DNA of 64,000 nt, from assembly GCA_000165425.1 (NCBI GenBank), contig CT868054.1, positions 124,001-188,000 of the forward strand, in the 5' to 3' direction. Position numbers and translations under genes: made by a program. This document shows positions 5,301 to 61,000 of the stretch, piece after piece; positions within the stretch are counted from its first letter, which is position 1; each line of letters begins with the position of its first letter. This stretch comes from Paramecium tetraurelia. Taxonomy: Eukaryota. The notes below the pieces were generated by a model. It saw nothing but the letters and a program-made list of their open reading frames with translations. It did no database searches and was not told the DNA's origin.

Positions 5301-8300
5301 ATGTCTTTGTAAGACAAAACTATAAGGACTGTTGATTAGTACATTCTAATTCTCTACTCAAACGACTTGTTCTAAATGTCATTACTCCTGTTTGACCTGC
5401 GATGGATTTTCATCCTTAAATTGCATAACATGTTCAGATACTGAAAATAGAATTCAGACTGGAACTGCCTGTTTATGTAAGCCTAACTATTTTGATTATG
5501 GTTCTTCTTTATGCAAAAGTATGGATTGATTAATGAACCTCATAGAATGCAGTTACAGATGTAAAACCTGTTCTTAAAGAGAGGAGTAGTGTCTAAGTTG
5601 TCCTCCTTTTAGTCTAAGAGAATATAATTCTTTAATGATGCTATGTAATTGTCCTAATGGCTATTATGATGACGGAACCAATCCATTGTGCTAATGTATT
5701 TAATTCATCGAAAATAGAATGCCATTACACTTGCTTAAAATGCACTGGCTTAGCAACCAATTGTGAATTATGCTCAGGCATTTCCTAAAGAATCTTAGAT
5801 CAAATCTTGTTAACATGTAATTGTTAGCAAGGATATTATGATGATGGAGTTGAAATTTGTAAATAGTGTCATTATACTTGTTTTTCCTGTAATGGAGCAG
5901 GACCTAACTCCTGTAATTCATGTCCATCTGTGGCTACTTCGTATAGAGTATTCTATAATAAAACATGCAATTGTTTAAATGGATACTACGATGATGGGTC
6001 ATCAAGCAATTGTAAGAAATGCTAGAATTAATGTTTAACTTGTCAAACCTATTCGTATCAATGTTTATTATGTCCATCTACCAGACACTTAGATGGATCG
6101 AGTTGTATTTGTGATTTAGGATATTATGATACTGGGGCATAGAAGTGCAGTCAATGTGTTTCTAATTGCTTAAATTGTTAAACCTCATCCACTAATTGCG
6201 TTTCATGTGATTCTACTAAAAAGAGAATTTTAAATACAACAACAAAAACTTGTGTTTGTCAAAGTGGCACAATAGAAATCAACGGCATTTGTTAGGATTG
6301 CGATATTTAATGTAAAACTTGTTCCAATTCTACATCCTATTGCACATCATGTGAATCCATAAGATTGTTAGACAATAATTAATGCATCTGTCTAGATGGT
6401 ACTTATGAATCCAGCATTGACCATTAATGCTATTTTTGTCATAAGTCATGTTTAACTTGTGTCTATCAAGCTACTTAATGTTTGACATGTTCTGAACCAG
6501 ATTTTAGAATTATTAAACCTGGAAATGGTTGTGCATGTTTTGATGGATATTATGAAAACTCAATAACACTATCTTGTGAAAAATGTGATAGTCCTTGTAA
6601 AACATGTGATCTATACGCAACCAATTGTACCTCTTGCTTTGAAGCACTTCATTACAATAAATAATAAAATTATTGTGTGTGTCAATCTGGCTATTTTTAC
6701 AATGCTACTACTAAATTATGTGAAGGTATATTAACATTATTATCCATCATAGCCTGCAATTTCACATGTAAGGAATGTAGCACTTAGCTAAAATGTACGC
6801 AATGTGATTTAAGTACTAGATATTTTGATGATCAACACTTTAAGTGTCTTTGCTAAGATGGCTATTACGAGGCAAATCTGAGTTAATGTCAAAGTATATT
6901 GATTTGTTATTCTTTTTAGTATGCCATATCTCATGCTAAACTTGCATCACTTCTTCTAATAATTGTCTAACATGTGAAACACTACTATACTATAGAAATT
7001 TTAATAATAATTAATGCATTTGCTAAGATGGATATTATGATATTGGAATATCAATGTGTTAGAAATGTAATGATGTTTGCAAAACATGCTAAGTAACAGC
7101 ATACAAATGTTATTCATGTTATCAAAGTGAACACATTCGAACACTTGTTAGTAACTAATGTATCTGCCAAACTGGTTATTATGATAATGGAACTTTAGTT
7201 TGTTAGAGTAATAAAATAGAATTATGATTAGAATGTTCAAATGAATGTCTTACTTGTAGTGGATCAGAGAATCATTGTACTAGTTGCGATATCAATCAAA
7301 AGAGAATCGATTAATCAGTTATCTATAGATGTCCATGCATGACAGGTTTTTATTCCGATGAAAATAAGATTTGCTAAAGTAATTATTGAACTTAACTGTT
7401 AGAATGTCATATCAAATGCACTTCTTGTCTAAATCAAAGTGATCATTGTCTCAGCTGTAAACTTGTAACTGGCAGCAATAGATACACATTGTCATAGAAT
7501 TGTGATTGTAAAGCTGGCTACTTTGATGACGGGATTTAATTACAGTGCTAACAATGCAATCAGAGATGTAAAACATGTGTAAATACTTCAACCAATTGTT
7601 TAACATGTTTCGATAGTTTGAGATTCAACCCTCCTAATTGCAATTGCATTGATGGCAATTATGAAGATGCGTAAAAATATTGCTAACGTATTTAAATTTA
7701 TTAATCTATTAGCATGTAATCATGAATGTAGTACATGTATCAACAAACCAGAAAATTGTTTAACTTGTAAACCTGGTAGAATGACAGCCTAATGTGTATG
7801 CCAAGATGGTTATTTCGAAGCTGGAGTATAAGAATGCTTAAGTAATCAATTAAATCATTTCCATAGAATGTAATATTTAATGTAACACCTGTAATCAAAC
7901 AGCCTCAAACTGTTTATCATGTAAAGGTGATCGTATTAATTCGCCAGGCTGTTCATGTCCATTAGGTTACTTTGATGATCTCATAAATCAAAATTGCCAA
8001 CTATGTGACTCATTATGCTAAACATGCGATCGACTTGGTTGCTCCACTTGTGCAGGAAATAGAATTATATCAAAAGAATACACTTGTGATCCCCCTAACA
8101 ATTCCATATGTAATAATATCACTCCTTGGTGTTCAAGTAAATTGTTACACTATTTTTAGCTTGTGATGTTGCAGTGTTGAATATTCAAATATCTGATGAT
8201 TTAAAATCTGTCATTGTTAAATTTGATTTCCCCTTGAATCCTAAAAGTTTCTCTAGTTAAGTTTAAAAAAACCTTTGCTATCAAATTTTATCCAACACTA

Positions 8301-15200: not shown

Positions 15201-18200
15201 ACACATTTAAGATGCCATCAAACTGGCACAAAATACCTGCTGAAATAATTTGGATTTTAAAAGTCTACAATTAATTATGACCTGAAATTTTATTGGTCAC
15301 ATTTATTTAAAAAGTATAATTAGAGTTTGGGGATAATTTATATTCTTGTATTGCAATAGAATGATCCTTTTAGGAGGAGGTAATATCATAATTAATATTT
15401 GATTCTGATGCTTCTTTTGGAGTCTTTTCTATTTGAAATAATTAAACTGCATAAGTATAAAGTTGAGATGTCAAGATGACCTTTTTGTAACATTAAATGG
15501 TCTCGATATTAAAATTAAGTAGAATTTATTGGAATGTGAAATATCTCCTCTTTATATTTAAGAAAATGGTTGGTGAATCTCCATCATGAGTTGAAATCAT
15601 AAAATGCTATACTTAAGAGGTAGACAAAAAGTTTGAGAATTGAACAAAGAAGGTGATATTGGAATTGATCGGTAGAGTAGCTGCAGGTATTATTAAATTG
15701 AAATCCTTTAGGGTATTTTGATTTTCAATGAAGTCATCTAATTGTTTATTAGTTCGACTTGAAGATGTATAATACCAATAAGGATTTATCAGAGCTCTTT
15801 TTCCATCATACATGCGATTCATTTAATAGATCTATGTTTCCACACAAGGATTGATTAAATAATCAGGTACATCAAATTCTAATAAAGGTTATAGCAATAT
15901 TATTGGAGGTTTAACTTGATTGTGAACAAAAACTGATAACGGTTATTCACAAGATAGATGAGAAAGAGACTTATTATTGAAAAGCAATTAATCACCTACA
16001 TTTATATTAGGATAATCTCCTAATTAAATGAGTAATTTGTGGTTGTCAGTTGGACTTACTGAACAAAGTGGATTCCTTCCTAGTTTATCGATTGAAGTCA
16101 TCTCAAATATTTAGAAGCATTTATTTGATAAAGAGTAGGATTGGAATAGTTTATCATCCAAAGGAAAATCAAATACTATTATTAGACGATCGAGTTCATC
16201 TGAGAAATAAATATTTAACACTGCTACAACGCAACCTAAAGTTATAGAGATTGTATATATATACTAGAGCACCATGGAGTATCTTAATAGCAGACAGAGC
16301 CTGGCGGAGAATCACAAGTCATTTCTTAAGATAAGATTCTGTTTCCATTGCAAGTAATACATCTATTTGCATCACAGGTATCACATGTGTAATGACATTG
16401 TAGACAACTCTCATTAACAAAGTCATCAAAGAATCCATTAGGGCATTTGCATATTGGTACTGAAATTCTGTTACCCTTACATGAGGTGCAGTTATTTGAA
16501 TCTTGAGCACAAGTCAAACATTAGAATCCACATTCTAAATTTAGTATAAGAGTAATTACACACACAATTATTCAAACCTGCTTCAAAATAACCATCAGAA
16601 CATTCACAAGTAGGTCCAATTCTATCTGGTTTACAAGATAAACAATAAGCTGGGTTAGTAATACAAGTACCACATTAATATTCACAAGCTGGAGGTAATA
16701 TAATAATTTATACGTTAGCATGTTTATTATTAATCTTCAAAATATCCATCGATGCAATTACAAAGAGGAGGATTTGATCTGAAACTGTTACTGCAAGTTG
16801 AGCAATTAGTAGAGGCATTTAAGCACATTTTACATTGATAACTGCATTTCTAACATTAAATTTATGTTCCATCATCATAATACCCATCTTTACAATTACA
16901 TTGATATGATAAAGAATGACGATGTGAGTTGACTTGATAATTACAGCTGATACAAGTTTCACTGGAATTGATGCAATCATAACATTTTATGTGGCATTCT
17001 TAACATGATTAATTAGAATACTTTGACAATTCTGATTTTAGTCTTCAAAGAATCCTGTGATGCAAGGACACTTCTTCTAAATTGATTTGTCTATTCTCTT
17101 TTAATTTAAATCACAACTTGTACAAAAATGAGATTGAATATCACAAGTCTTACAAGAGTTTGAGCATTCTTAAATCAAATTAAATCTTACTTTAACAAAT
17201 TACAGATCCAGAATTGAAATATCCACTTTAACAAGTACATTAGTCTCCTTATTAAATTCTATGTTATTCTGAGTCATAGCATGATGTGCATTTAGTGGAA
17301 GAACTCTAACAGGTTTTGCATACTTCAGAGCATTTCTAACACATTGACACACCAACATCGTAGTAACCTTAAAGACATTAGCATTAATTATTATTAAGTA
17401 GTCGAAAGTAGGATTGACTACAAGTTTGGCAGTTGGTTGAAGAACTCAGACAAGTGGAGCATGAATAATGGCATTCTGAATATATAAAATTGATATACAT
17501 TGACAAAGCTCAGTATTTGTTTCAAAGTATCCATTCCTGCATATGCATTTCAACGAAATATTGTCAAATTCTCGAGTAAGTGTATTACATGTAGTACATT
17601 CATATTGACTCTGACATTGTAAACAACTAAAATGACACTCTAATGGTATGATAATTAAAATACATTAACACGATTTGGTAGTAACATCATAATAGTATTT
17701 AGACATACACACACATTAATTAGATTGAATATCATAATGAAGACTGGTATCACAGGATGTACAATGATTAGCATTATATTTGCATGTTAAACAAGTCTGA
17801 TTGCATGGCATACAATTTTGATTGGTTAGATTTTCATAATAGCCATCTATACATTCACATTTAGATCCCCATTTTAAAATTCTGAAGTCTCCACTTATAC
17901 AAGATAGACATTGTGTTGCTGTGTAGATACAAGTCAAACATGAGGAATGACAAAGATAGCATTGTTTATCATTATAATCCTCATAAAAACCATCATTGCA
18001 TTTACAAACTGATCCAATTTATATTCTATCCATAGGACAGGATGTACAATTATCCTATTGATCAATACAAGTATAACAAGTCAAATTGCATTATTAACAA
18101 ACTCCATTCAATTCAAAATATCCAAATTTGCATACACAATTACTCATTTACTTATTTAACATCCGATTTTATTAACCATTACATTCTATACATTAAGTTG

Positions 18201-21200
18201 GAGATTTAGAACATCTGAAACAATTGGCATCACATTTTGAACATTAAGCATACCCAACTTCATAATAACCATTTAAACAGTCACAATTTTATTGTAAATT
18301 TCTGGTTTATGGACAGGAAGTGCATTAATAAGATTATGATATACAAGTTAAACACTAGTAATCGCATTTTTTACAATTTGCTGAAAATCCATCATCATAA
18401 TATCCAGGTAAGCAAATACACGAATTTAAATATAGTACTCTATTTGAAACCGACTAGTTTATGCAACTCAAGCAATTCTAGAATGAATTACAACTGAGAC
18501 AAGAATAATGACACTTTTGACATTCTTAAACACCTGAATCAAAGTATCCCTGATTGCAAGGACAAGTTAAGATCAAGTCGTTAAGTTGTCGATGTGATGA
18601 TGCTTTACATTCACTACATAATGTGCTCATTTTAGAACATGTATAACAAGAATAATGGCATTCTAAAATGAACTAACAATTATTACATTAGCATAAACTG
18701 TTTTATCCATCATCATAATATCCATCAGGACAAACACACTTCTTTAACATCTAGTTTAACACTCTCAGACTATTCTCCAAACATTCCAAACATGTGTCAT
18801 CCTTTGAAATGCACAATTTACATTATATACTGCATTCTTAAAAGTCATAGATTAATTTAAAATACTTTAACACACTGCCCTACCGACTTCAAAATATCCA
18901 TCTTTGCAAATACACGTAGATCCAATTTATACTCTGTTTTCACTATCAAGACATGTTATACATTGATTTGGTGCAGAACTCTTCTAACATGTTAAGCATG
19001 TATAATGGCAATCTGGATGATAGACTATTATTATACTTTAGCATTATAGGACTCCCTTCAATTCATAGGTGCTTATCTGATATCCCTGAACTTTTGTCTT
19101 ACAAAGACATTTATTGCCGTTGAGATATCTATCTTTCGAACAAGCTGTACAATTATCATATTAATCTACACACTCTTAACAATATGAACTGCATTCTATA
19201 AATTACTATTTATCAATTCATACTTTAACACTCTTATACTTCCTACTCGAAATAGCCTTACATGCAAACACATTCATTATTTATTAACTTTCTGAATTTA
19301 TTTTTATTACAAGAGTTACATGATTATTCAGTGGCATCAGTGCAAGATTAACATTTAAAATGGCACACTATAATTTCAATTTTTAAATACTTTTGCATAT
19401 AGGAATTTAAATTTCATCATAGAACTCTTCAGTGCATGAACATGAATTGTCAGATCCTAATTGTCGACCTGAATTAGGAGGACAACTTAAACAATAATAG
19501 CTAGTATCCTTGCAGAGTTAGCATTTATAAGAGCACTCTAAATATGAATTACAAATATATCACTTCCACAAATTGGTTCTCCAGTTATATCATAATAACC
19601 TTCCATACAAGTACAAGTGTTTCCAATCTGAACTCTGTATTATACTTCTTCTGAACATTCTATACAATTATCTAAATTGACGTTGTCACAAGATTTACAA
19701 CTGTAATGACATCCTAAATTATGAGTGGAAATGAAAGTTACCTTAGCATAAGAGATTACCGATATCATAGGAAGCAATAGGACAATTACATTAAACTGAG
19801 TCAAATTCACGATAAGTCGTATCGCAACTTAGACAATTATACAATTCTGGTCCATCACAAGATAGACATGAATAATGGCAAGGTTGGCATTCCATAGTTC
19901 CATCCAAGTCATAGTAGCCAATTTCCTAACAAGTGCAAATGAAAGTAGATCCAGCAACAATTGAAATCCTTGATGAAGGACACTGAGTGCATTTGTCAAT
20001 CCCAGAGTCAAACAGACAATTTTAACATGAATAATGACATTCTATTAAATTATTAAATTTAAAATACATTAGCATTCCATATTCACATTGTCGTCATAAT
20101 ACTGATCTTAACATAAACATTCTTTCTTTTATGACAAATACCTATGTGAACTGTCTGAACACTTGACACAACTTTTAGACAACACTCCATAGCAAGATGC
20201 ACATGCATAATAACACTCTTGGAAATATACATATGAGATAAGTTACTATAGCAAATTTCATAGATTCCATCATCACTATAATTCTCTTGACATACGCAAT
20301 CTAAATCATCTGATATTTCTCTGTTTTATCCATCAATACATTTTATACAATATTCCAGCGAAGTACCAGGTCGAGATTGAATACACTCAGCGCATTTTTT
20401 ATGACATTCTAAACCTTATATGAATCATATACTAGCGCATGTAAGATCTGGAACTAATTTGTTTTCTTAAGTAGAGAATGATAATACATTTCCATACCCC
20501 TCAATACAAGCACATTCTCCTTTAACTGTTAAATAACGATGATAGATATTCGGATCTCCACAATCTACACAATCACTCATAGTGGTTCCCTTGCATGCAT
20601 AACATGTTTTATGGCATCCTTGAATAAAAGAAAATCTAAACTTTTGCATACTAACGGTCTGCCATCCGTTCTAGTTTTGTCAAAAAACTCAAAGAACAAG
20701 GTTTGACAAACGCAAGAAGTCCCTACCAATTCTCTTCCATAAAAGCTATCGCAATGAGTACAAGAAAACGGAGTAGGATCGCAAAGTTAACAATACAATG
20801 TAGTACAACTTTTACAGGTTCCATAATAATCCCCTTAGCTTCCTTTAATGTTGCATTCACATTCACCTGCACTTGTTAGATATTTCCCCATCCCATCATT
20901 GCAGACAGTACAAATGTTTGGGTCATCTAATTAACAATATAAGCAGTGCTTTTTAACACAAGTCAAAACTACACATGCAGAATTCACCAAAACATATCCA
21001 GGACGACAATATAAGCATCCCGATTCATTGCATATTGGACAGTTCTTTCTTTTATTGCAACCTTGGTTTATCATTCAATCTATTACTTGAGCATTAATTA
21101 AACATGGTATCCCAAAAATAACCAAACAGACATTCCAAACATTTAGTACCTGTGAGAGTTCCTGCCCATCATATACCAGTTCTTAGTTATTACAATTCTT

Positions 21201-32057: not shown

Positions 32058-32986
32058 TCAAACAATCCTTCTCTAACTTATATAGCACTTCAAAGTTTAA
32101 CCATTTTATATTTGATATTCCTGGAAAGAACATTCGTGTTGGCATAGCACTCCATTCGAATAAACTATTATTTCTCCTTGTTCGTTTCCAAGACTAATAC
32201 GGATTTTATCAATTAAATCTAACAACAAAGAATTAGGGTTATAACAGGCCTTAAATGATCTTGATGATTGTGGGAATTCTAAATCTACTGTGATTTCTGG
32301 ATTCAATATATTTTTATTTGATAGACCCTTTGGTTGAATTGCTGTAGTTTCTTGTATTTTCATTTCACTTTTGAACAAAGCTTAATCAATCTGGAAATGT
32401 AATTTTTCTTTTTCCTTTTAAGGGTATTATATATCTGGAGATTAATCAAAGTTTTCTTCTAATTCTAAAATCTTACTTATTTTTTTGCTCTCTATCAGTA
32501 TTTTTTCAACTGATTCAGTCAAGCACTTCTTCAGGTCATTTAATAGATTGAGTAATTCTCTTAACTCTTTATCTTTATTCCTTAAGGAATCCTTTTGATC
32601 AAGTAGTTATAAATAGCAGCTGATTTAAGTGTTGCTTAAGTTTATAACCTCCATATCACTACAACCCGATAAATTGTTTTAAATACTATCTACTTATTCA
32701 TACGTCTGTTTATTTTAGCTAATGGCTTTACTCATTTTGCTTTTATATTGTAAATCAATTTCATTTAGTGTTTCCAATAATTAAGTTTGTAAATTTTTCA
32801 TTGTTAACAATTGTTTTAGAAGCTTTCCGACTTAAGTATTTAAATCATTTATGGAAATAACATCATCCTTATTTATTGAGTTTTCTTCAAGGAAGCATTT
32901 TAGGCACATTTTTAGTTTCTTATAAAGTTGAGGTTTCTTACAAATCATAGTTATTAATTCTTACAGGAAAGTGATTAGTTAATCAT
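32058..32986 (-). pseudogene. B-box-like/coiled-coil/ubiquitin-like family member, copy 1 (frameshift in the N-terminal Zn finger)
   Basis: MINQSLSC then a frameshift, resuming ELITMICKKPQLYKKLKMCLKCFLEEN; C-terminal UBL-like ITVDLEFPQSSRSFKACYNPNSLLLDLIDKIRISLGNEQGEIIVYSNGVLCQHECSFQEYQIQNGQTLKCY; TGA 32058-32060. Confidence 0.65.
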
Positions 32987-32997
32987 TGGATACAATA

Positions 32998-33295
32998 AAT
33001 TTTAGTTAATAATAAAAATGTATTAAAATGGATTTATCATTTTTTGCTTAATTAGGAATTATTTATTTTATCTTGGTTTTTGTTTTAAGATATATTATTT
33101 ATGGACTTATCAAGATCTTATTTTTAAATGTTGGCATTATCTTTTTGCATTTTTAGTAAAGCTGATTAATTTTCTTCTTATTCCTCTTCAGGTACAAGAC
33201 TCAAACCTCTATCAACTTGTTTGCTTCCAGGAGCTTATTAATCTATTTCATCCAATCTTGCCATAATTTAATCTTTCAAACCAGGTTTAAGATTT
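32998..33295. repeat. ~298-bp direct copy of 38072-38369 (CEP104 3' end + spacer); also left arm of an inverted repeat with 33548-33840
   Basis: Base-by-base match to 38072-38369 with 4 mixed substitutions; reverse complement of 33548-33840. Confidence 0.95.
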
Positions 33296-33805
33296 CCCTA
33301 CTTTATTTGTTCCACCTGATAAATAGCCAACAAGGATTATATAGGCTAGATTAGAGATAGTATCAAATGTTCTTTAGGAGTTTGGATATGATTAGAGATA
33401 ATTTAATCATCAAGATATTTTCTTCATTTTAGCAACTCCTTGTTTATTTCATTAGGCGAATGAAATTAGACTTTTAAGTATTGAAGTTATAGCAGCTTTA
33501 TATCAATTTGTTGGAGTAGAAATCAGAACTATGGTTGATGCTATTGAAAATCTTAAACCTGGTTTGAAAGATTAAATTATGGCAAGATTGGATGAAATAG
33601 ATTAATAAGCTCCTGAAGCAAACAAGTTGATAGAGGTCTGAGTCTTGTACCTGAAGAGGAATAGGAAGAAAATTAATCAGCTTTACTAAAAAAGCAAAAA
33701 GATAATGCCAACATTTAAGAATAAGATCTTGATAAGTCCATAAATAATATATCTTAAGACAAAAACTAAGATAAAATAAATGATTCCTAATTAAGCAAAA
33801 GATGA
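33292..33805 (+). pseudogene. duplicated 3' fragment of the CEP104-like gene
   Basis: FPTLFVPPDKQPTRIIQARLEIVSNVLQEFGYD...; no 5' part; 1-nt deletion at ~33615 relative to the intact gene. Confidence 0.85.
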
Positions 33806-33860
33806 TAAATCCATTTTAATACATTTTTATTATTAACTAAGATTATTATGACAATAATTA

Positions 33861-34871
33861 ATGAGCAACTCATAGTAAATGTTCTGTCAAGATCATAAAA
33901 ACTAATAAATTACAGCAATTTGTAAAATTCCTCGATCTAATGGTAAAACAAAAATGTGCCAAAGATGCCTTGTAAATGATCGCAGTATCAAAGAGGGAGA
34001 TATTATCTTCATTAATGAATTTGAAACTGAGATAGAAAGTTTGAGATCAGCTTTAGAAACAATACAAAATACACAATTATGATAATTGGAAATATTAAAT
34101 GAGATACATTAATCATAAGATAGATTAAGGTAAGTCATCCTTCTTATGAGACAGAAAAAACATTCTTTAGATAATTTTGTACAAAGATCTTTAAGTTCTT
34201 TGTAAATAGAAAGCATTAACTTAAGTGACAATGAAGTAAGTGATTTTATGTAACTATTTAATCCAACAGGAATTGTTAAGAAGTATAAATCTAGAGTTAT
34301 AAGAATCTCTCAATCCATTAAGAGATTTAAGAACACGTTTAAACTAATAATGTGAAAGGATTCTATAAGACATCTAATCAATAAATCAGATTCTAAATGA
34401 AGAAGAATCAATCTTCTCAGAAAATTAATAAGAAAATTAACATCAGGAACATCAGAATCATGACCTTAATTCATATGTGTCTATGAGTATGTCTTAAGGT
34501 TTTATATTATTATAATAATAGGTTATTAAAGCCGAATTAAAAGTTCATTACTGGAATCATACAAACAAGTCATTTAGAATTCATAATAATAACGCGAGGA
34601 GCTATGTTAAATTCTTCCTGAATAATTAAGATGCTAATATAATTAAACTTTAACAATAATTTTAGTTTTCGATCATTTGGTAAACGCATATGAAATTGAA
34701 ATTGATTCACAAGCGTCTATAGGAGATTTAGCTCAAGAATTCAAAATTGTTCTTAATCATCAAAAAGAAATACTTTTTTCTTTTGAAGGCAATATTTTAG
34801 AAGAGGAATTTACGTTTCAATAACTAAATATTTAAAATGGTTATACCCTCTAAGCTTAACTAATTTATTGA
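33861..34871 (+). pseudogene. B-box-like/coiled-coil/ubiquitin-like family member, copy 2 (in-frame TGA + frameshift as assembled)
   Basis: MSNSQQMFCQDHKNQQITAICKIPRSNGKTKMCQRCLVND; TAA->TGA at 34080-34082, extra C at ~34263; intron ~34499-34521; open UBL exon ...AYEIEIDSQASIGDLAQEFKIVLNHQKEILFSFEGNILEEEFTFQQLNIQNGYTLQAQLIY*. Confidence 0.7.
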
Positions 34872-35204: not shown

Positions 35205-36055
35205 TTCATACTCTTTATTTTAGATAACAGATTACAACCTGACTGTTTGAAATATATTATTGTTGAAAAGTTCTTTCTAACAGTAGAATAATCTCATTAT
35301 GGTACATTATTATTTTTGGTAAATAATTTCTAATTCATTTGAATTCTTTTCACAAGCTTTCCTATTGAAAGTTATGAATCCAATTAAATATTAATTTCTC
35401 TTTTTTACATAGTGGAATTTAAAAGTTATTTCAATTTGTGAATTTGTTAGATTCTGATTTATTAATCTCTTGGTTAAGGTTAAGCCGAATTTAAATAATT
35501 ATATTTAACTTCCTAATTGATTTTAAATATCTCCTTCACTGGCGTTTGAATAATCTTGTATTTCTAATTAGGAAGTTTCTGATAAGATCTAATACGATAT
35601 GTTTAACTTATATCTATGTTTTCAAAATGACCTAATATAATAATTAAATAAAACTTCTTATCATATTATCATCTAGGAATATAACAGGATTCTATTAAGT
35701 AAAATTTGATTCTTAGAATGATCCTATCTCTTATTTGTACTAATTTGATTGAAATTCTAGGAAAGGTTAACTATTTTTTTATGGTGAAGATTAACTGTAG
35801 CTCGAATTATCCCTTATGATAATATTCTTATTAATTTTCTTATTAAATGGATTTTTCTTCATTAAGAATCTGATCTATTGATTAGATGAATAGAGAAATT
35901 TTCACATCATGTTCTTAAATCTTTTAATGGATCGAGAGATTTTATAACCATAGAATTATATTTCGTAACAATTCCTGTTGATTAAATAGTTCCATAAAAT
36001 CACTACTTCATTGTCGCTAAAGCAATGCTCTCTTATTAAAAAGATTTCTTTACAT
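35205..36055 (-). pseudogene. B-box-like/coiled-coil/ubiquitin-like family member, copy 3 (5'-truncated, multiple indels)
   Basis: 35830-36030 is clearly homologous to 37480-37710 with indels; degenerate UBL (IEITFKFHY...LDSQLSIGKLVKRIQ...ERTFQQQYISNSQVVICYL) across shifting frames. Confidence 0.65.
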
Positions 36056-36914
36056 TAAGTTTAAGAGAGGAGAAAATATAAATAATAGAAAGTGGACTAA
36101 TAGTAAAGTTCCTATAATCTTTATGAGAAACATGAAAACGATCTCAGAATTTACTAAATTGTCTCATAAACTCCAGCTCAAAATGAGCAATTAATTATTA
36201 ATTAATATATTTCAGTTTATAGTGAGTGGAAAGCCTACATTAAGAAAAGATTAGTTATGAAGGATAATCTGAATACTCCTATATTTTTAAAGTAAATTTC
36301 ATATAAAATTGGATTAAAAAATCATATGATAAGTGCTAGTTATTTTTTCTAATCACTAAAATATTATCCTTAGAATTTTTGCAAAAATCTAAACTCCAAA
36401 GAGAAAATTTGTTAACTCTCAAAAACACACGAAAAGTTAGTTCCCTTTAAGACATTCTTAAAACAATTACCGCAAGGCAAAAGCCTGAAGTTTCTTTATT
36501 TTCTCAGTGATACCGAATCCTCAGCATATGCTAATAATTCGAACGAAATTTCTTTTTCTATAATTAAGTCTTTAAAGAAACTCAAGAAGATAAATATTAA
36601 ATACGGCTAGTGATATTAATAACTCTTAAGTAACACCAGTTTTTTGAAACAGGTTTCTTCCTCAATTATTAGAGACATATAAGATATCCAGAGCTCATTT
36701 TTTATTGGTATTTCTTTTAATCATATAACAAATGGCTTCTATAATTTTATAAAGAACTTTAACGATTTAAGAATTTCAAATGAACTAATTATTCTTAATA
36801 GAATAAATTTTATAATTTTATAAGATGTTATTTTTCACCCTCAATAATAAATAACTTAGATATTAATAATTTTCACAACAAATTATTATTAATATTGGCA
36901 AGAAATATTTCCAA

Positions 36915-38625
36915 GACTTCAACAATTCCAAACAATTTTGTTAGAGGACAATAATACAATTAAAAAATTATGTTTTCAAAATATTTATGTTTTATTTTCA
37001 ATATTTTAGCTAACCCTAGAGAGTAAAACCATTTGAAATATTTAATTATTTCAAGGATTTTTCCTCATTTAAAATGTTATTTTTGTACAAAAATATTATT
37101 TCCTTTTGATGATTAAGAACAATTTTGAATTCCTGAGCTAATTCTCCTATGGTCAAATATGGATCAACTTCAACTTCAAAGATATTTGCCAAAATATCGA
37201 AATTTAAATTTATTAAGATGTTTTCATTTAATTCTCTTCCTGATTACCTTTTTAAAATAATTTAGGATGATATTGAATTTACAAACATCTACGTATTAAA
37301 AAGAGATTCATTGATTTAATATTAATAGTTTTAAATGATTTTTTAGAATGATTCCGCTACAGGACTTTCGGCTCGACTATTAGAGAAGTAATAACTTTCG
37401 GGATTAGCTATTATTATAATAATATAAAACCTAAAGACACATATGAATTAAGGTCATGATTCTGATGTTCCTGATGTTAATTTTCTTATTAATTTTCTGA
37501 GAAGATTGATTCTTCTTCATTTAGAATCTGATTTATTGATTAGATGTCTTATAGAATTTTTTCACATTATTAGTTTAAACGTGTTCTTAAATCTTTTAAT
37601 GGATTGAGAGATTTTTATAACTCTAGATTTATACTTCTTAACAATTCCTGTTGATTAAATAGTTACATAAAATCACTTACTTCATTGTCACTTAAGTTAA
37701 TGCTTTCTATTTACAAAGAACTTAAAGATCTTTGTATAAAATTATCTAAAGAATGTTTTTTCTGTCTCATAAGAAGGATGACTTACCTTAATCTATCTTA
37801 TGATTAATGTATTTCATTTAATATTTCCAATTATTATAATTGTGTATTTTGTATTGTTTCTAAAGCTGATTTCAAACTTTCTATCTCAGTTTCAAATTCA
37901 TTAATGAAGATAATATCTCCCTCTTTGATACTGCGATCATTTACAAGGCATTTTTGGCACATTTTTGTTTTACCATTAGATCGAGGAATTTTACAAATTG
38001 CTGTAATTTATTAGTTTTTATGATCTTGACAGAACATTTACTATGAGTTGCTCATTAATTATTGTTATAATAATTTTAGTTAATAATAAAAATGTATTAA
38101 AATGGATTTATCATTTTTTGCTTAATTAGGAATTATTTATTTTATCTTAGTTTTTGTTTTAAGATATATTATTTATGGACTTATCAAGATCTTATTTTTA
38201 AATGTTGGCATTATCTTTTTGCTTTTTTAGTAAAGCTGATTAATTTTCTTCCTATTCCTCTTCAGGTACAAGACTCAGACCTCTATCAACTTGTTTGCTT
38301 CCAGGAGCTTATTAATCTATTTCATCCAATCTTGCCATAATTTAATCTTTCAAACCAGGTTTAAGATTTTCAATAGCATCAACCATAGTTCTGATTTCTA
38401 CTCCAACAAATTGATATAAAGCTGCTATAACTTCAATACTTAAAAGTCTAATTTCATTCGCCTAATGAAATAAACAAGGAGTTGCTAAAATGAAGAAAAT
38501 ATCTTGATGATTAAATTATCTCTAATCATATCCAAACTCCTAAAGAACATTTGATACTATCTCTAATCTAGCCTATATAATCCTTGTTGGCTATTTATCA
38601 GGTGGAACAAATAAAGTAGGGAAAT
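36915..38625. repeat. right arm of ~1.7-kb inverted duplication (partner 33292-34955)
   Basis: Reverse-complement match checked line by line. Confidence 0.95.
36998..38055 (-). CDS. B-box-like zinc finger + coiled coil + C-terminal ubiquitin-like domain protein, copy 4 (intact)
   Basis: Continuous code-6 frame with one 23-nt intron (~37409-37431): C-x2-H-x8-C-x11-C-x2-C N-terminus, heptad-rich middle, ILINLNFDILANIFEVEVDPYLTIGELAQEFKIVLNHQKEIIFLYKNNILNEEKSLKQLNISNGFTLQGQLKY*. Confidence 0.8.
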
Positions 38626-40391
38626 TTGGATCCATGACCATTTTATCAAAGCAGCATTAAACCTATATTATCATAAACTTAATACAAGCATTCCAAGATT
38701 TGCAGCAGGATGTCTGTAGATACTTAAAAGGGTGTGTAAACTAATATCTCTGGCTCTGAAATTCAATTCACTTATTTTTTCTATAAGAATAGGAGTGAAT
38801 TCTTTCAAGACTTTATTAATTATTGCAGGGGATACATCAGTTCCACAAACTGGAGGTGCCAACGCAGTTGATAATATTTTTAATCCGATAAAATATATTG
38901 ATAATATTTTATCCTCCATACAGATTTTAGCAAATTCCATTGCAGCAAGAAATAATTTCTTAGTTTTACCATTTTTATATTTATCTGGAAGTGGCATTTC
39001 TAAGAAATTCAATACTGCTTAAGCACAAGCTTCTCTAATTCTCCAACTATCACTATGAATACCTGTCCAAGCTTTTGCCCCAAATACTGTCAAATATCCC
39101 AATTGATGTAATCTTCTTAATATTTCCAAAGGAATATCAACCATCTTCTCTCCGGCTTATGCGAGTAAAGGATTAAGATATAATTCTAAATCAACATCTC
39201 CTTCATTAAAGGCAAAAGGATTATTGAAATTCAAGAGTGGTTCATCATCTTCTTTTTTTTCTTTCTTCTTCTTCTTTTTAATGTTTCTATCATCTCCTCC
39301 TTTTTCCCACCATGGTGTTTTATCAATTTTGTTATCAATACTTTTACCCAATTAATTTTATTCATCTTATATCATTCTTCTTCTATTTTATTCCTCTAAT
39401 TCTCTTTATCTTCTTAAAGCATCAGCGTTCATTTATTCTTGCATTTCCAAATATTCCAAATGTCTCATATATTCTGCTGTTGTAGGTCTCTATAAATTAA
39501 TCATTTTCTCATATCTACTAGTCTCATATAACGCATCAAAAGTGTCCCTTTTGGCCTCTAATCTTTTTAATCTATTTCTCAATTCCATTGCTCTAAGATA
39601 ATCCTCCTTTGCAACACAAAAACTTAACTCCCTTTTTAATTTCCAAATTTCCTTTCCTATTTCAAAAATTAACTTCATGTCTCTTTTCAATTCCTTAAGG
39701 AATTCAAAATCCTCAACTCTTCTTGCTGAATCTCTCTTTAATTTCAAATCATTTAATGTCTCTCTAGATTCATCATCGATTGGAGCATATTAATAATTTC
39801 TGTCATCATCTTCAAACCAGTTGATCATATCTACAGGTATACCCAAATCAATCAACATCTTATCTACTTTAGCTATCATTCTATACCAATATTGTCTTTC
39901 GCACCGTAGACCTCCTCGCTCTAATCAACAATGTTATAACTCCTTGCAATTCCCCATATTTTTAACAGTGAAATTGAAACTTATCCATAAGGGTTTTAAG
40001 GAGCTCTTTTAGGATGTTCAATTATTTTTATCTTCAAGTAATTCCCGATTCCAGTTAATTTCACTTAAAGAGGTTTAACGTAAACATTCTCGCATTGCCC
40101 AGCCCTTCTATATTCAGCATCATTCCATCCACCATTTAATCCATCCCCTATATAAATGTTCATTTTTGGAATCCCTTTATCAGTTTTACTAGCTATCAAT
40201 AAATGATCGACTTAAATTCTGGTATGAAATCTCAGGATTATCTCAACTGGATAGTCTGCAGTTCTGCTACATTCCCAACTTCTTTGTTATCCATATTATT
40301 AAGTTGACAGAAAGTCTGCAGGAGTATTGAAATCCTCGCTAGAACAAGCTACCACGTGAAATGGAACCCAAGTAAAATCGATTCTATTCAT
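38111..40391 (-). CDS. CEP104: centrosomal/ciliary-tip protein CEP104-like (jelly-roll + coiled coil + TOG domain)
   Basis: N-terminus VPFHVVACSSED...SWECSRTADYPVEIILRF...GNYLKI...NPYGQVSISLLKIWG matches the CEP104 N-domain pattern; coiled coil with VAKEDYLRAMELR; HEAT/TOG segment SDSWRIREACAQAV; one intron ~38663-38687; TGA 38111-38113. Confidence 0.85.
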
Positions 40392-58000: not shown

Positions 58001-61000
58001 AATTATAGTTTGTAGTGCTCTTTGTTATGAATGCGTTGATAGACTTGATAATTGTACTTCATGCTATGATGATAGATATCTAATTGGAAATAAATGTTAA
58101 TGTGCTTCTAAGTTTTAAGGGGCTTCGATAAGTACATTTGAATTTAATGGTTTGGTTAAATGCTAAAGTATATCTTCATATAACTGTAAGAGTGCCATTA
58201 TTCTTGTGCAACATGTGGAGGAAAAGAAGAAATGGATTGTATATTATGCATAGACACGGATCATAGGTATTAAGTAGGCAATACTTGTGTTTGCAAAGAA
58301 GGATATTATGATGCAGGATTGCCTGTCTGTTAAAGTATTTATCATTTGTTTATCAATAGAATGCAGTTACAAATGTAAAGGATGCTCAAGATAGTCTGAA
58401 TATTGTACTTCTTGTTAAGATAACAGTTTAAGATAGTTAGTTTCAGATTTCAAAACATGCAAATGCAATTAAAGATATTATGATGATGGTTAAAGTGAAG
58501 TTTGTTAATGTATGTATTTTCAATATGATTAATTAGAATGCCATTACTCATGCCTTAGATGTAATGACATCGACACAAAATGTGAATTATGCTCATTTGA
58601 ATCAAATAGAATTTACAATGATTAACTATTTTCTTGTGATTGTGATGTAGGTTATTATAATACTGGAGTTGAAATCTGTTAAAAATGTCACTATTCCTGT
58701 TTAAGTTGTAATTCTGGAGATTCATCATCATGTATTTAATGTGTTGATTCTAACATTTCAAATAGAGTATTTTATAATAACACTTGTAAATGTTTATTTG
58801 GATATTTTGATGATGGCTAATCAATTAAATGTTAAAAATGTGATGTTTAATGTTTAAGTTGTATTAATTAATCTTATTAATGTTTATCATGTCCACAAAC
58901 AAGGAAATTAGAAACTAATTGTAAATGTTAATAAGGATATTATGATATTGGATTACAACTATGTTAAAAATGTAACTCAATTTGTTCTGCATGTGAATTT
59001 ACATCTAATAATTGCACATAATGTGATTCTGATTAATTTAGACAACTTAATGAAATTACTAAAACTTGTGATTGTTAAATTGGTTATCTTGAACTTAATG
59101 GAATTTGTTAATAATGTGATCAAAGTTGTAAAATATGTTAGTAATAATTGAATCATTGTACATCTTGTGTATAATTTAGAAAATTAAATAATAATAATTG
59201 CATTTGTATTGATGGTATGTTTGAATCAATTTAAGATAAATAATGTAAATTATGTCATAAAACATGTTTAACATGTGCTTATTCAGATTAATATTGTTTA
59301 ACTTGTTCAGTTGATAATTTTAGAATATTTAAATCTGGAAATACTTGTGAATGTATATAAGGATACTATGAAAATTAAATAACTTATGCATGTGAATAAT
59401 GTTCAAAATCTTGTTTAACTTGTTCATAATAATATAATAATTGTTTAACATGTGATACAACTCTTAATTTATCTTTAATCAATAATCAATGTTTATGTTC
59501 GTAATCCTATTATTTTGACACTTTAACTAATTCATGTTAATGTAATAATATTATATAAATATAGAATGTAATATCACCTGTTTAGATTGTTAAAATCAGA
59601 ATGAATGTGCATCATGTAAATTAACAACCAGACATTTAGATTAAGATTAAAAGAAATGCATATGTAATGATGGTTATTATGAAACAAACTAAGCAAATTG
59701 TTAATGTATTATAAATTATCTACTTTTAGAATGTCATTTATCATGTGAGACTTGTATTAATATCGATACTAATTGCTTAAGTTGTATAAGTATATCGAAT
59801 AGAATATTAACTAATAATTAATGTTTGTGTATATAAGGATATTATGATGCAGGAATTGAAATATGTTAAAAATGTAATGGTAAATGTAAGACGTGTTAAT
59901 CCTCTGCTTCAACTTGTTTATCTTGTTATCAAATTGAACAAAATAGATATTAATCAACAGATAAATGTTTATGTAAATCTGGATATTTTGAATCTAATAC
60001 TGATATCTGTTAAAGTAATCTTAATTAATTAATAATTTAAAATGCTCAAACGAATGTCTAACATGTTAAGGTTCGCCTGATTATTGTACAAGTTGTGATA
60101 CCAATTCAAAAAGAATAGATTAATCATTTATTCACAAATGTCCATGTATAATTGGATTTTATCAAGATCAAAATTATATTTGTTAAAGTAAATATCCATA
60201 TATTATTTAAAGAATGCCATTATAAATGTTAAACTTGTATAAATATAAGTGATTAATGTTTTAAGTTGTAAATTTGAATTAAATTCAAACAGAAAGTCTT
60301 TGTCTGATTAATGTAATTGTAAAGAAGGTTATTATGATGATGGAACTTAATTATAATGCTAAAAATGCAATTTTAAATGTAAAAGTTGTATAAATGATTC
60401 AAATAACTGCTAAATTTGTTCAAATTCAATACGAAGTAATCCTCCAATGTGTAATTGTATTGATGGATATTATGAAGATTTATAATTGACTTGCTAAAGT
60501 ATCTATTATCTTATAATAAGTGTGTGCTTATTAATGTAAGAAATGTGTTACTTAACCATAAAATTGTTTGACTTGTAAACCAGAAAGATCTGGAACTGAT
60601 TGTAAATGTAGTGATGGATATTATGAAAATGGATCCATATTTTGCGATTGTAATAATTCTTAACAATTTGATATAGAATGTGCATTTCAATGTGCTACTT
60701 GTAGTAATTCATCATCGAATTGCAACAAATGTAAAGGTAATAGAATTTAAGAGCCTTAATGCATTTGTCAACCAGGCTATTTTGATGATCAATTAAACGA
60801 AGATTGTTAATTATGTGATAGTTCCTGTTTGGAATGTAATAAAATTGGATGTCTATCCTGTAATGCCAATAGAATAATAAATGATGATATGGATTGCGTG
60901 CCTCCACCGAATTCAATTTGGTATAATAATACTCCTTGGTGTTCAAGTAAGTGAATTTCAATATTTTTAGCTTGTTAAGTTGCAGTTATTAAAGTATATT

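Follow-up and report, generated by a model that had tools for sequence, protein, structure and literature searches.

How does one arm of an inverted duplication acquire a run of substitutions that are all A-to-G on a single strand? The question is raised by two neighbouring paralogs, here called gene A and gene B, in a 64-kb window of Paramecium tetraurelia DNA (the whole stretch that was analysed), in which public macronuclear gene models of the species are encoded exactly. The inverted duplication described in the initial annotation is present, and its two arms, copies A and B (Table 1), are 98.6% identical over 1192 aligned columns. Copy A contains a duplicated 3' fragment of a CEP104-like gene, an intergenic region, and the greater part of gene A exon 1. 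Copy B contains the 3' end of the CEP104-like gene itself (the intron of which was placed from the sequence), the intergenic region, and exon 1 of gene B, the product of which has a ubiquitin-like C-terminus.

The A-to-G tract and its consequences

MAFFT alignment of the two copies revealed exactly 15 substitutions in 1191 nt, and every one has G in copy A and A in copy B when read on the + strand (33719, 33758, 33782, 33801, 33841, 33850, 33964, 34045, 34081, 34103, 34179, 34303, 34322, 34358, and 34359); no substitution of any other type was found in the 1191 nt. The alignment thus recovered all of the changes that had previously been listed by eye. The two 1-nt indels noted at the same time were also found; both are private to copy A and both are changes in homopolymer length. 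All 17 discrepancies between the copies are confined to copy A and lie within 746 nt (33614–34359).

Within the mutated tract, 15 of the 294 adenines were changed but none of the 201 thymines and none of the 146 G and C residues, a burden of 2.3% per base and 5% of adenines. By chance, all 15 differences would belong to one and the same oriented transition class, whichever it is, with a probability of about 4e-9, and the changes are coordinated with respect to strand, 15 A versus 0 T having been altered on the + strand. The leftmost 427 nt of the repeat contain 156 adenines, none of them changed (p=3e-4), which indicates that the tract is localised. The neighbouring bases in the ancestral context are as the initial annotation had claimed: all 15 sites have A or T as the 5' neighbour, compared with 222 of 294 adenines (p=0.013), and the 3' base is A at 14 sites and G at none, T following only one. 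W[A]A was found at 14 of 15 sites versus 112 of 294 adenines (p=8e-6), and W-A-W-[A]-A at 12 of 15 versus 33 of 294 (p=2e-10). A 5' G is absent from the 15 sites, which is a weak test given a background of 13%. In RNA folds (span 100) the pairing probability was 0.25 for the mutated adenines and 0.30 for the remaining W[A]A adenines (p=0.49), and DNA folds of the same span did not separate the two groups (p=0.22). The other repeat pairs in the 64-kb window show only 70–81% identity and are therefore unusable for finding further tracts.

A stop at codon 74, together with the frameshift that the 34263 insertion causes, inactivates gene A, which is annotated as two models of 73 and 205 aa. The terminal TGA of the 73-aa fragment is a TAA altered at 34081, and the 205-aa model has E, R, and R as derived residues, its start having been placed 3' of the 34263 insertion. 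A single Gln TAA-to-TGA change had been reported before; the stop at 34081, in annotated coding sequence, was confirmed, but the count is two, the other being at 33850, upstream of the annotated start. Six of the 15 sites are upstream of this start (33861). The suggestion that the changes silence a duplicate is borne out as a description of the outcome, but we found no support for silencing as a purpose. A protein search with the N-terminus of gene B retrieved six proteins, two from P. tetraurelia, which are exactly those encoded by the window, and four from P. octaurelia; a search with the 73-aa fragment retrieved one protein, the window's own. Six ORFs of 34–42 aa read with translation table 11, three from copy A and three matching copy B, were all absent from protein collections, a result that favours neither allele, and no second source for the G alleles was found in these collections beyond the window's own models.

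Table 1. Positions of the features discussed in the text, numbered from the first letter of the window.
Feature	Position	Strand	Description
Copy C	32979..33295	-	older copy of B's upstream region, lying before gene C
Fold-back junction	33292..33295		C arm meets A arm; 4 nt, ATTT, common to both
Copy A, recipient	33292..34482	+	B-derived block before and inside gene A
Private 1-nt deletion, copy A	33614	+	GG to G; GG in both B and C
Mutated tract	33719..34359	+	15 A-to-G changes
Gene A N-terminal fragment, 73 aa, P0008	33861..34082	+	100% identity; the window's own protein
Gene A public truncated model P0006, 205 aa	34231..34868	+	exons 34231-34500 and 34524-34868
Private 1-nt insertion, copy A	34263	+	C to CC; absent from B and D
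Fragment D	35790..36060	-	decayed partial paralog, ~80% identical to B
Gene B, P0002, 344 aa, intact	37001..38055	-	exons 37432-38055 and 37001-37408
Copy B, donor	37435..38625	-	source block for copy A
CEP104-like (TOG domain) gene, upstream	38114..39924	-	PF21040, E=3e-13 and 4e-6

Direction of the changes and derivation of copy A

The third copy to which the initial annotation had pointed, copy C, has A at all six sites that it covers (33719–33850), and its own differences from B are four substitutions of mixed types. For three sites (34322, 34358, 34359) and the 34263 indel, fragment D provides an outgroup. Between them, C and D show A at nine of the 15; one more site, 34303, lies in a run of A where the alignment has a gap. 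Copy B shows no private change wherever a three-way comparison with copy C is possible. The P. octaurelia relatives carry the B residue at four of the seven amino-acid-changing positions, are unlike both copies at two, and carry the copy A residue at only one, 34322, where all four have R. The TGA at 34080–34082 interrupts what in B is an open frame, and all of the relatives have Q there. Judged by copies C and D, the P. octaurelia proteins, and the open frame of B, G is the derived state in copy A, as had been proposed.

The opposite direction would make G ancestral, with B (and C) having been hit by an APOBEC-like or RIP-like C-to-T change at T-C-W on the opposite strand, or with B carrying a Sanger G-to-A artefact. 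The opposite-strand context is T[C]W, which is the APOBEC3A/B motif, 11 of the 15 sites are A-G-A versus A-A-A, the motif of a known Sanger artefact, and the R at 34322 in P. octaurelia agrees with copy A. Against these stand the A at nine sites in C and D, the remaining P. octaurelia residues, the absence of private changes in B, and the in-frame TGA that the G state would place in gene B; ancestral G is largely refuted by these comparisons, and we consider it highly improbable. APOBEC-type kataegis would likewise start from ancestral G, with C-to-T changes at TC, and the ancestral base here is A.

Read from the sequence, the block 32979–34482 consists of B + strand 38055–38369 followed by B - strand 38625–37435 with a 4-nt microhomology junction, the C arm following the B + strand as far as 38369 and the A arm following the B - strand from 38625. 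Such a layout is that of a template switch. Separated by a spacer of 252 nt, the C and A arms make up an inverted repeat of ~300 nt that could fold into a hairpin. The 3' exon of gene A is nearest to P. octaurelia P0004 (56%) and that of gene B to P0003 (60%), and the 5' part of gene A is identical to B except for the tract changes. Because the two 3' exons are nearest to different P. octaurelia proteins, the B-identical 5' half of gene A is secondary, and sequence comparison shows it to derive from B. The block of high identity stops 3 nt short of the exon 1/intron 1 boundary of B. That all 15 changes are A-to-G and that 1191 nt contain no ordinary substitution points to a very young copy struck by a burst and not to slow divergence. 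The four mixed substitutions of the C arm relative to B indicate that the C and A arms are of different ages, and a one-strand fold-back picture may be too simple.

Three other explanations were considered and rejected. Patchy conversion that left old gene A bases in place would leave differences of every type, the old sequence being P0004-like and ~62% identical to B at the protein level. GC-biased gene conversion would be expected to produce T-to-C changes too, and the probability of a 15:0 outcome with 294 A and 201 T is ~4e-4. A transcription-coupled origin is contradicted by the start of the tract, which is not at the gene start and leaves six sites upstream of the annotated ATG.

Candidate origins of the G alleles

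The pattern of the changes, their direction, their context, and their confinement to part of the block are shown by the sequence comparisons. On balance, we think it slightly more likely than not that the G alleles are real, whatever the mechanism. We tentatively favour, as one possible origin, a single burst on the new strand during the copying of B into A, caused by low-fidelity synthesis with G inserted opposite T. In such a model, a 1.19-kb segment of gene B and the DNA upstream of it would have been copied, inverted, over the 5' part of the neighbouring paralog A, through either a fold-back template switch or ectopic gene conversion. The G alleles would have arisen in one event, on one strand, at the time of copying, when ~650–750 nt of new + strand would have been made by a low-fidelity, non-proofreading polymerase. 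A Y-family, Pol-eta-like enzyme would have inserted G opposite template T after A or T (WA to WG), and the same enzyme would have slipped twice in short homopolymers. The mismatches would then have evaded repair and become fixed, leaving a dead duplicate with its stop at codon 74 and its frameshift. We infer the coincidence of the event with copying, the nascent status of the + strand, and the kind of polymerase; if a single strand was synthesised across the block 32979–34482, the + strand would be the nascent one and hence the strand expected to carry G-for-A errors.

The error rate of human Pol eta is ~3 substitutions per 100 nt, its indel rate is ~1 per 400 nt, and T:dGTP is its commonest mispair; the 15 substitutions and 2 indels seen in ~750 nt agree with these rates in order of magnitude. 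The two homopolymer indels in copy A are a product to be expected of a sloppy polymerase and not of a deaminase. WA is the motif both of Pol-eta misincorporation and of the strand-biased A-to-G changes in somatic hypermutation (excerpts of PMC5704389). The purity of the tract counts against a polymerase, as enzymes of this kind would be expected to make other errors too. In somatic hypermutation, A-to-T and A-to-C together account for about half of the A mutations. The preference for a 3' A is not an established feature of Pol eta; TAA is an early somatic-hypermutation hotspot motif. Also counting against polymerase errors are the R at 34322 in all four P. octaurelia relatives, the fact that the tract is a single instance, and the appearance of the G alleles in the window's own models only.

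An error in the draft or its assembly is another possible origin, and one to which we give the same tentative weight. In that case the true copies A and B would be identical, and the consensus of copy A would come from one or a few poor reads in one orientation, with a systematic A-to-G miscall (T-to-C on the other strand) and homopolymer miscounts. The P. tetraurelia macronuclear assembly was built from 13x Sanger reads, and errors in this same assembly are known from its later correction by Illumina sequencing, which comprised 13,758 substitutions, 929 deletions, and 10,339 insertions, or ~11,000 indels (excerpts of PMC3464196). The initial annotation had named unpolished long-read A/G miscalls as the mundane alternative, which is not applicable to a window from a Sanger-built public assembly. 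Nanopore errors related to 6mA were rejected for the same Sanger assembly, and ApT, the methylation motif of ciliates, is formed at only one of the 15 sites.

The 17 discrepancies occupy 746 nt, about one Sanger read length, inside the repeat and off its edges; both indels could be homopolymer length errors, and the strong 5-nt context dependence resembles that of a chemistry or base-calling fault. The ~300-nt hairpin-capable arms could also have lowered the coverage, inverted repeats of this kind being known to clone poorly in E. coli, and the protein collections offer no independent source of the G alleles. Clustered, read-strand-specific, motif-bound Sanger miscalls at A-G-A/A-A-A have been described and can enter low-coverage references, but the documented artefact is the opposite one, in which a true G is read as A in AGA or AGG, and an A-to-G miscall without an adjacent G is unlike it (excerpts of PMC2873906). 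Moreover, C, D, the P. octaurelia proteins, and the open reading frame all support the A state of B. Random low-quality errors would give a mixture of types rather than 15 of 15 of one type, 746 nt covered in a single orientation is improbable at 13x with both orientations, and there is no gap (no N) in the 64-kb window. The assembler's handling of single-read bases also speaks against a draft error, as it presumably corrects bases seen in one read only.

An alternative to polymerase errors that we regard as unlikely, again on the premise of real G alleles, is adenine-specific deamination of an exposed single-stranded + strand, in which A becomes hypoxanthine and is read as G. Exposure would result from resection, a break-induced-replication-like intermediate, or a hairpin during duplication or repair, and the agent would be a putative enzyme. 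Deaminases acting on the single-stranded DNA of break-induced replication are an established cause of one-strand clusters, as shown for cytosine (excerpts of PMC6765108). Deamination would account for the purity of the changes, with T and G/C untouched, as well as for the strand coordination and the bounded tract, and the 5-nt context would suit the preference of an enzyme. The candidate enzyme class is an obstacle, however, as eukaryotes are not known to have a natural DNA adenine deaminase. Cytosine deaminates far faster than adenine, and the absence of change at any of the 72 C residues of the tract excludes spontaneous deamination. In addition, neither DNA nor RNA folds show the mutated adenines to be less paired than the remaining W[A]A adenines. 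The two private indels would be left unexplained and would have to be separate draft errors, of which 0.19 are expected in 1191 nt at the rate derived from PMC3464196.

It is a good deal less probable that the tract records an endogenous Paramecium activity that converts to G the one-strand adenines of freshly duplicated or hairpin/inverted-repeat DNA in the W-A-W-[A]-A context. Were this true, it would amount to a RIP-like, duplicate-disabling form of DNA editing with a chemistry opposite to that of every known system.

We give very little credence to the write-back of ADAR products, in which dsRNA from the inverted duplication would be hyper-edited A-to-I, reverse-transcribed, and written into copy A. 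The locus is able to form a long inverted-repeat RNA, the changes are A-to-G only on the sense strand of gene A and lack a 5' G, and the end of the identity block close to the exon 1/intron 1 boundary of B would also fit. G is depleted 5' of ADAR sites (PMC2873906), and a similar RNA/reverse-transcriptase model has been proposed, and disputed, for WA-to-WG changes in antibody genes (PMC5704389). The 3' neighbours, A at 14 sites and G at none, disagree with ADAR activity. ADARs favour a 3' G. Furthermore, the tract begins in the duplicated tail of the upstream gene, 142 nt before the annotated start, and the 427 nt further upstream in the same identity block, which reaches 569 nt upstream of the annotated start, carry none of the A-to-G changes. 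The locus shows no trace of an RNA intermediate, the tract contains no intron whose loss could be scored, and pairing probability in folds of span 100 gave no signal. A-to-I mRNA editing has been described as a metazoan innovation (excerpts of PMC9989829), and the papers retrieved by a literature search on A-to-I RNA editing in Paramecium do not name it in title or abstract. The adenine-specific mutagenesis proposed in the initial annotation is supported in that the changes are adenine-only, strand-specific, and contextual, but its ADAR write-back version has little support.

Significance and comparison with known systems

Paramecium is noted for an extremely low mutation rate, and its mutation bias is AT-directed. 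The germline has been described as extraordinarily stable (excerpts of PMC8670300). If the G alleles are real, a one-type, one-strand burst would have occurred in a ciliate with a stable germline and would run counter to the AT-directed bias. Copying from paralog to paralog could then be locally hypermutagenic and kill a new duplicate at birth, and natural adenine-directed clustered mutation, by polymerase or deaminase, would exist outside animals. If the G alleles are an artefact, an A-to-G error mode is recorded in a widely used reference, where one gene has been split into two models, and short-read polishing may fail to mend it because the true reads would map to the intact copy. In the accessible parts of the Paramecium literature on hypermutation, RIP, RNA editing, and gene conversion, no report of such a pattern was found, and RIP is mentioned there only in general terms.

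In fungal RIP, as here, a duplicated segment is full of one-type transitions and is inactivated by stop codons; RIP, however, causes C-to-T changes that raise the AT content, usually in both copies, whereas the changes at this locus are A-to-G, raise the GC content, and affect one copy. The Sanger AGA/AGG miscall (Zaranek et al. 2010, PMC2873906) resembles the tract in its one-type, one-read-strand clusters and in the G between A's, but the error described there is G-to-A, and here the paralogs, orthologs, and open frame support the copy with A. Footprints of ADAR or APOBEC editing in retro-copies share the diagnostic used here, near-identical copies with a run of a single mismatch type (PMC2873906); in contrast, our locus has no retroelement, no sign of an RNA intermediate, and neighbours that are not ADAR-like.

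Kataegis and break-induced-replication clusters are similar in being one-strand, one-type clusters by a microhomology junction in newly copied DNA (PMC6765108), although theirs are C-to-T or C-to-G changes at TC made by cytidine deaminases and the base altered here is adenine. Pol-eta WA mutagenesis, seen in phase 2 of antibody somatic hypermutation and in tumour clusters, likewise produces a one-strand A-to-G cluster of less than 1 kb, with W before the A as at 15 of our 15 sites (PMC5704389). The locus differs from it in lacking A-to-T, A-to-C, and C:G mutations and any known trigger such as AID, and in having a ciliate as host and a fresh gene duplicate as target; it also adds an A at +1 and an A at -2, which are not part of the known motif.

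The inverted repeat and its A-to-G differences

The window is AT-rich (GC 22-34%) and reads as ciliate DNA, with long open frames in which TAA and TAG encode Gln. Copies A and B form an inverted repeat of 1192 alignment columns with 98.6% identity. MAFFT alignment revealed exactly 15 substitutions within the repeat, each with G in copy A against A in reverse-complemented copy B, which matches exactly the 15 coordinates and the uniform A-to-G type that the initial annotation had read from the sequence alone. Apart from these and two 1-nt indels, A equals B across 1191 nt, and the identity falls to about 75-80% past 34482/37435. The near-identity stops 3 nt short of the gene B exon 1/intron 1 boundary, and gene A has about 15 additional nt ahead of its own intron.

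Coordinates of the repeat copies, genes and related features
Feature	Coordinates	Strand	Remark
Copy A	33292-34482	+	recipient
Copy B	37435-38625	-	donor
Copy C	32979-33295	-	in front of gene C
Gene C	32061-33200		
Fragment D	35790-36060	-	decayed partial paralog
A-to-G sites	33719, 33758, 33782, 33801, 33841, 33850, 33964, 34045, 34081, 34103, 34179, 34303, 34322, 34358, 34359	+	in copy A
1-nt indel	33614		GG to G, homopolymer, private to copy A
1-nt indel	34263		C to CC, homopolymer, private to copy A
Gene B, P0002, 344 aa	exons 38055-37432, 37408-37001	-	exact match
Gene A, truncated model P0006, 205 aa	exons 34231-34500, 34524-34868	+	exact match
Gene A, N-terminal fragment P0008, 73 aa			terminates at new TGA; window's own protein
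Gene A intron	34501-34523		23 nt
Gene B intron	37409-37431		
C-arm/A-arm inverted repeat	32998-33844		spacer 33296-33547 (252 nt)
Dispersed paralogous segments, set 1	60077-60627, 16577-17132, 7275-7824		70-74% identical
Dispersed paralogous segments, set 2	58756-58951, 18254-18449, 5943-6135		70-74% identical

The A-to-G pattern exceeds chance and is highly non-random (p about 4e-9 for 15/15 differences in one oriented transition class). The tract from 33719 to 34359 contained, in the ancestral state of the + strand, 294 A, 201 T, 74 G and 72 C; 15 of the A were changed, and none of the T, G or C. The leftmost 427 nt of the repeat contained 156 adenines, none altered (p=3e-4), and the rightmost 123 nt contained 55, likewise unaltered (p=0.06). 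The neighbours described in the initial annotation were also borne out: the 5' neighbour was A or T at 15/15 sites (222/294 in the background, p=0.013), and the 3' neighbour was A at 14/15 (142/294, p=2e-4) and T at just one. W[A]A accounted for 14/15 hits compared with 112/294 adenines (p=8e-6). Position -2 was A in 12/15 and position -3 was A or T in all 15; the extended motif W-A-W-[A]-A held 12/15 hits as against 33/294 adenines (p=2e-10), and 36% of such sites inside the tract were mutated. In eleven of the 15 hits, the mutated base was the last but one in a run of A.

A near-perfect inverted repeat, made of the C arm and the first part of the A arm (arms about 300 nt, 96% identity), could be extruded as a hairpin. 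The first five A-to-G sites (33719-33841) lie in its right arm, and the arm identity is reduced through them from about 99% to 96%.

Direction of change and origin of copy A

Six of the sites (33719-33850) are covered by copy C, and each is A there; copy C also bears four substitutions of its own relative to A and B, of mixed types. In the three-way comparison copy B had no private change, and the 33614 deletion was private to A. Fragment D, about 80% identical to 37470-37719 and 34197-34447, shows A at 34322, 34358 and 34359, has an alignment gap within an A run at 34303, and is without the additional C at 34263. At 34081, TAA (Gln) became TGA inside the annotated coding sequence; the same change occurred at 33850, but upstream of the annotated start.

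With the first 257 residues of the B frame as protein query, six proteins were identified among 410 candidates: two from P. tetraurelia (macronuclear, unnamed product), on a contig of 215,326 nt, and four from P. octaurelia, the latter sharing one contig. At the seven amino-acid-changing positions, the four aligned P. octaurelia relatives carried the B residue (K, Q, I, K) at four and were unlike both A and B at two. At site 34322 (37595 in B), however, all four have R, the copy A residue, whereas B and fragment D have K. This is the single result counting against the simple A-ancestral reading, and could reflect either a chance reversion or a later change common to B and D. Based on the bases of copy C and fragment D, the P. 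octaurelia residues and the TAA-to-TGA changes, we take the direction to be established, with G derived in copy A as the initial annotation had inferred.

Gene A is an old paralog in which B sequence has recently replaced the 5' part and 569 nt further upstream, since the 3' exons of genes A and B are nearest to different P. octaurelia proteins (P0004, 56%, and P0003, 60%, respectively) and the N-terminal part of B is only 62% identical to P0004. The block 32979-34482 consists of B + strand 38055-38369 followed by B - strand 38625-37435, with four bases (ATTT) common to both parts at the junction (33292-33295), a fold-back arrangement such as template switching typically produces. Ordinary substitutions number four in about 300 nt of the C arm and none in 1191 nt of the A arm; the C arm is the older. 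The 5' flank of gene C is 97-99% identical to the B upstream region over about 315 nt, even though gene C is a distant family member (about 30% protein identity to B), so that the B upstream region must have been copied to neighbours at least twice. The region of fragment D (35536-36060) is flanked by the converging genes A and B and represents a partial, decayed copy of the central part of the genes of this family. Both sets of dispersed paralogous segments are too diverged for a one-directional tract test.

The G alleles in the public assembly

The window encodes public P. tetraurelia models exactly, and thus the public assembly contains the G alleles as well as the stop and frameshift; its annotation divides gene A into two models. 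The family proteins are coiled-coil with a ubiquitin-like C-terminus (Pfam matches weak, under curated cut-offs). Upstream of B lies a CEP104-like gene whose product has a TOG domain (PF21040, E=3e-13). The gene B frame is open for 52 codons 5' of the annotated ATG (MPTFKNK...; 38055-38211, copy A counterpart 33705-33860), and this upstream frame overlaps, in another frame, the predicted CEP104-like C-terminal tail (ORF end 38111); the intergenic distance would be just about 55 nt.

Long-read miscalls, the mundane alternative raised initially, are excluded: the macronuclear genome of strain d4-2 is described as built from 13x Sanger reads (PMC3464196). Later Illumina polishing, as summarized in the same source, fixed 13,758 substitutions, 929 deletions and 10,339 insertions, so the draft contains errors; reads of a B-identical copy would map to B and could leave copy A uncorrected. 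A Sanger-draft artefact is a possible, though less likely, source of the G alleles. In favour of an artefact, the 17 discrepancies are confined to a single copy, within a repeat and inside 746 nt, about one Sanger read; both indels would be homopolymer miscounts, and the hits are strongly tied to local context. A second source for the G alleles was sought in the protein searches, including the 410 candidates, and none was found among the proteins matched. Clustered, strand-specific, motif-bound A-G-A miscalls are reported in Sanger traces and can reach references, yet the miscall documented there runs in the opposite direction, from true G to A (PMC2873906). Furthermore, the open reading frame, the orthologs, copy C and fragment D all back the A-bearing copy; random low-quality errors would not give 15/15 of one type; and 746 nt on single-orientation reads is unlikely at 13x, in a window (64 kb) that contains no N. 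We lean, on balance, toward the G alleles being real, whatever the mechanism.

Possible mechanisms and comparison with known systems

If the alleles are real, the burst must be of nearly the same age as the copy itself, because no ordinary substitution is present, and the simplest reading is that it took place during copying. Our tentatively preferred mechanism is low-fidelity synthesis, with error-prone copying the most likely route. A polymerase without proofreading would place G across from T as it extends the nascent strand past an A or T; if the fold-back block was synthesised as one strand, the + strand would be nascent, and the orientation fits. Error rates of Pol eta in vitro are of the same order as the error density of the tract. 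Such synthesis is favoured by the confinement of the changes to one strand, by the two +/-1 indels that accompany them within the same interval, and by the WA context at 15/15 sites; WA is the motif described both for misincorporation by Pol eta and for strand-biased A-to-G change in antibody hypermutation (PMC5704389). The purity of the tract argues against it; other error types would be expected and none is present. Non-proofreading polymerases of the Pol-eta kind make other errors too.

Adenine deamination on exposed single-stranded DNA would account for the purity, but leaves the two indels unexplained and requires a DNA adenine deaminase, which eukaryotes are not known to have; we consider it improbable, despite the parallel with cytosine clusters reported on break-induced-replication intermediates (PMC6765108). 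Spontaneous deamination was ruled out, as no C was changed in the tract. ADAR-like editing followed by reverse transcription is very unlikely: the A on the 3' side does not match the 3' preference of ADAR, the tract is not transcript-bounded, and RNA and DNA folds of span 100 gave no pairing signal for the hit adenines. A-to-I mRNA editing has, in addition, been described as a metazoan innovation (PMC9989829). The reversed direction, whether through mutation in the manner of APOBEC or RIP or through a Sanger G-to-A error in B, is scarcely credible, being contradicted by copy C, fragment D, the new TGA codons and the P. octaurelia residues.

The literature searched yielded no description of a tract of this kind in Paramecium. 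In its working the tract most resembles strand-coordinated WA-to-WG mutagenesis and, likewise, kataegis beside a rearrangement junction. Unlike Pol eta products, it lacks a mixed spectrum at A; unlike those of APOBEC and RIP, it has no cytosine target; and unlike those of ADAR, it is without signs of an RNA intermediate and has the wrong 3' neighbour. Because it fails the defining feature of each of these families, we file the tract as a clustered one-strand mutation outside the Pol-eta, APOBEC, RIP and ADAR families.
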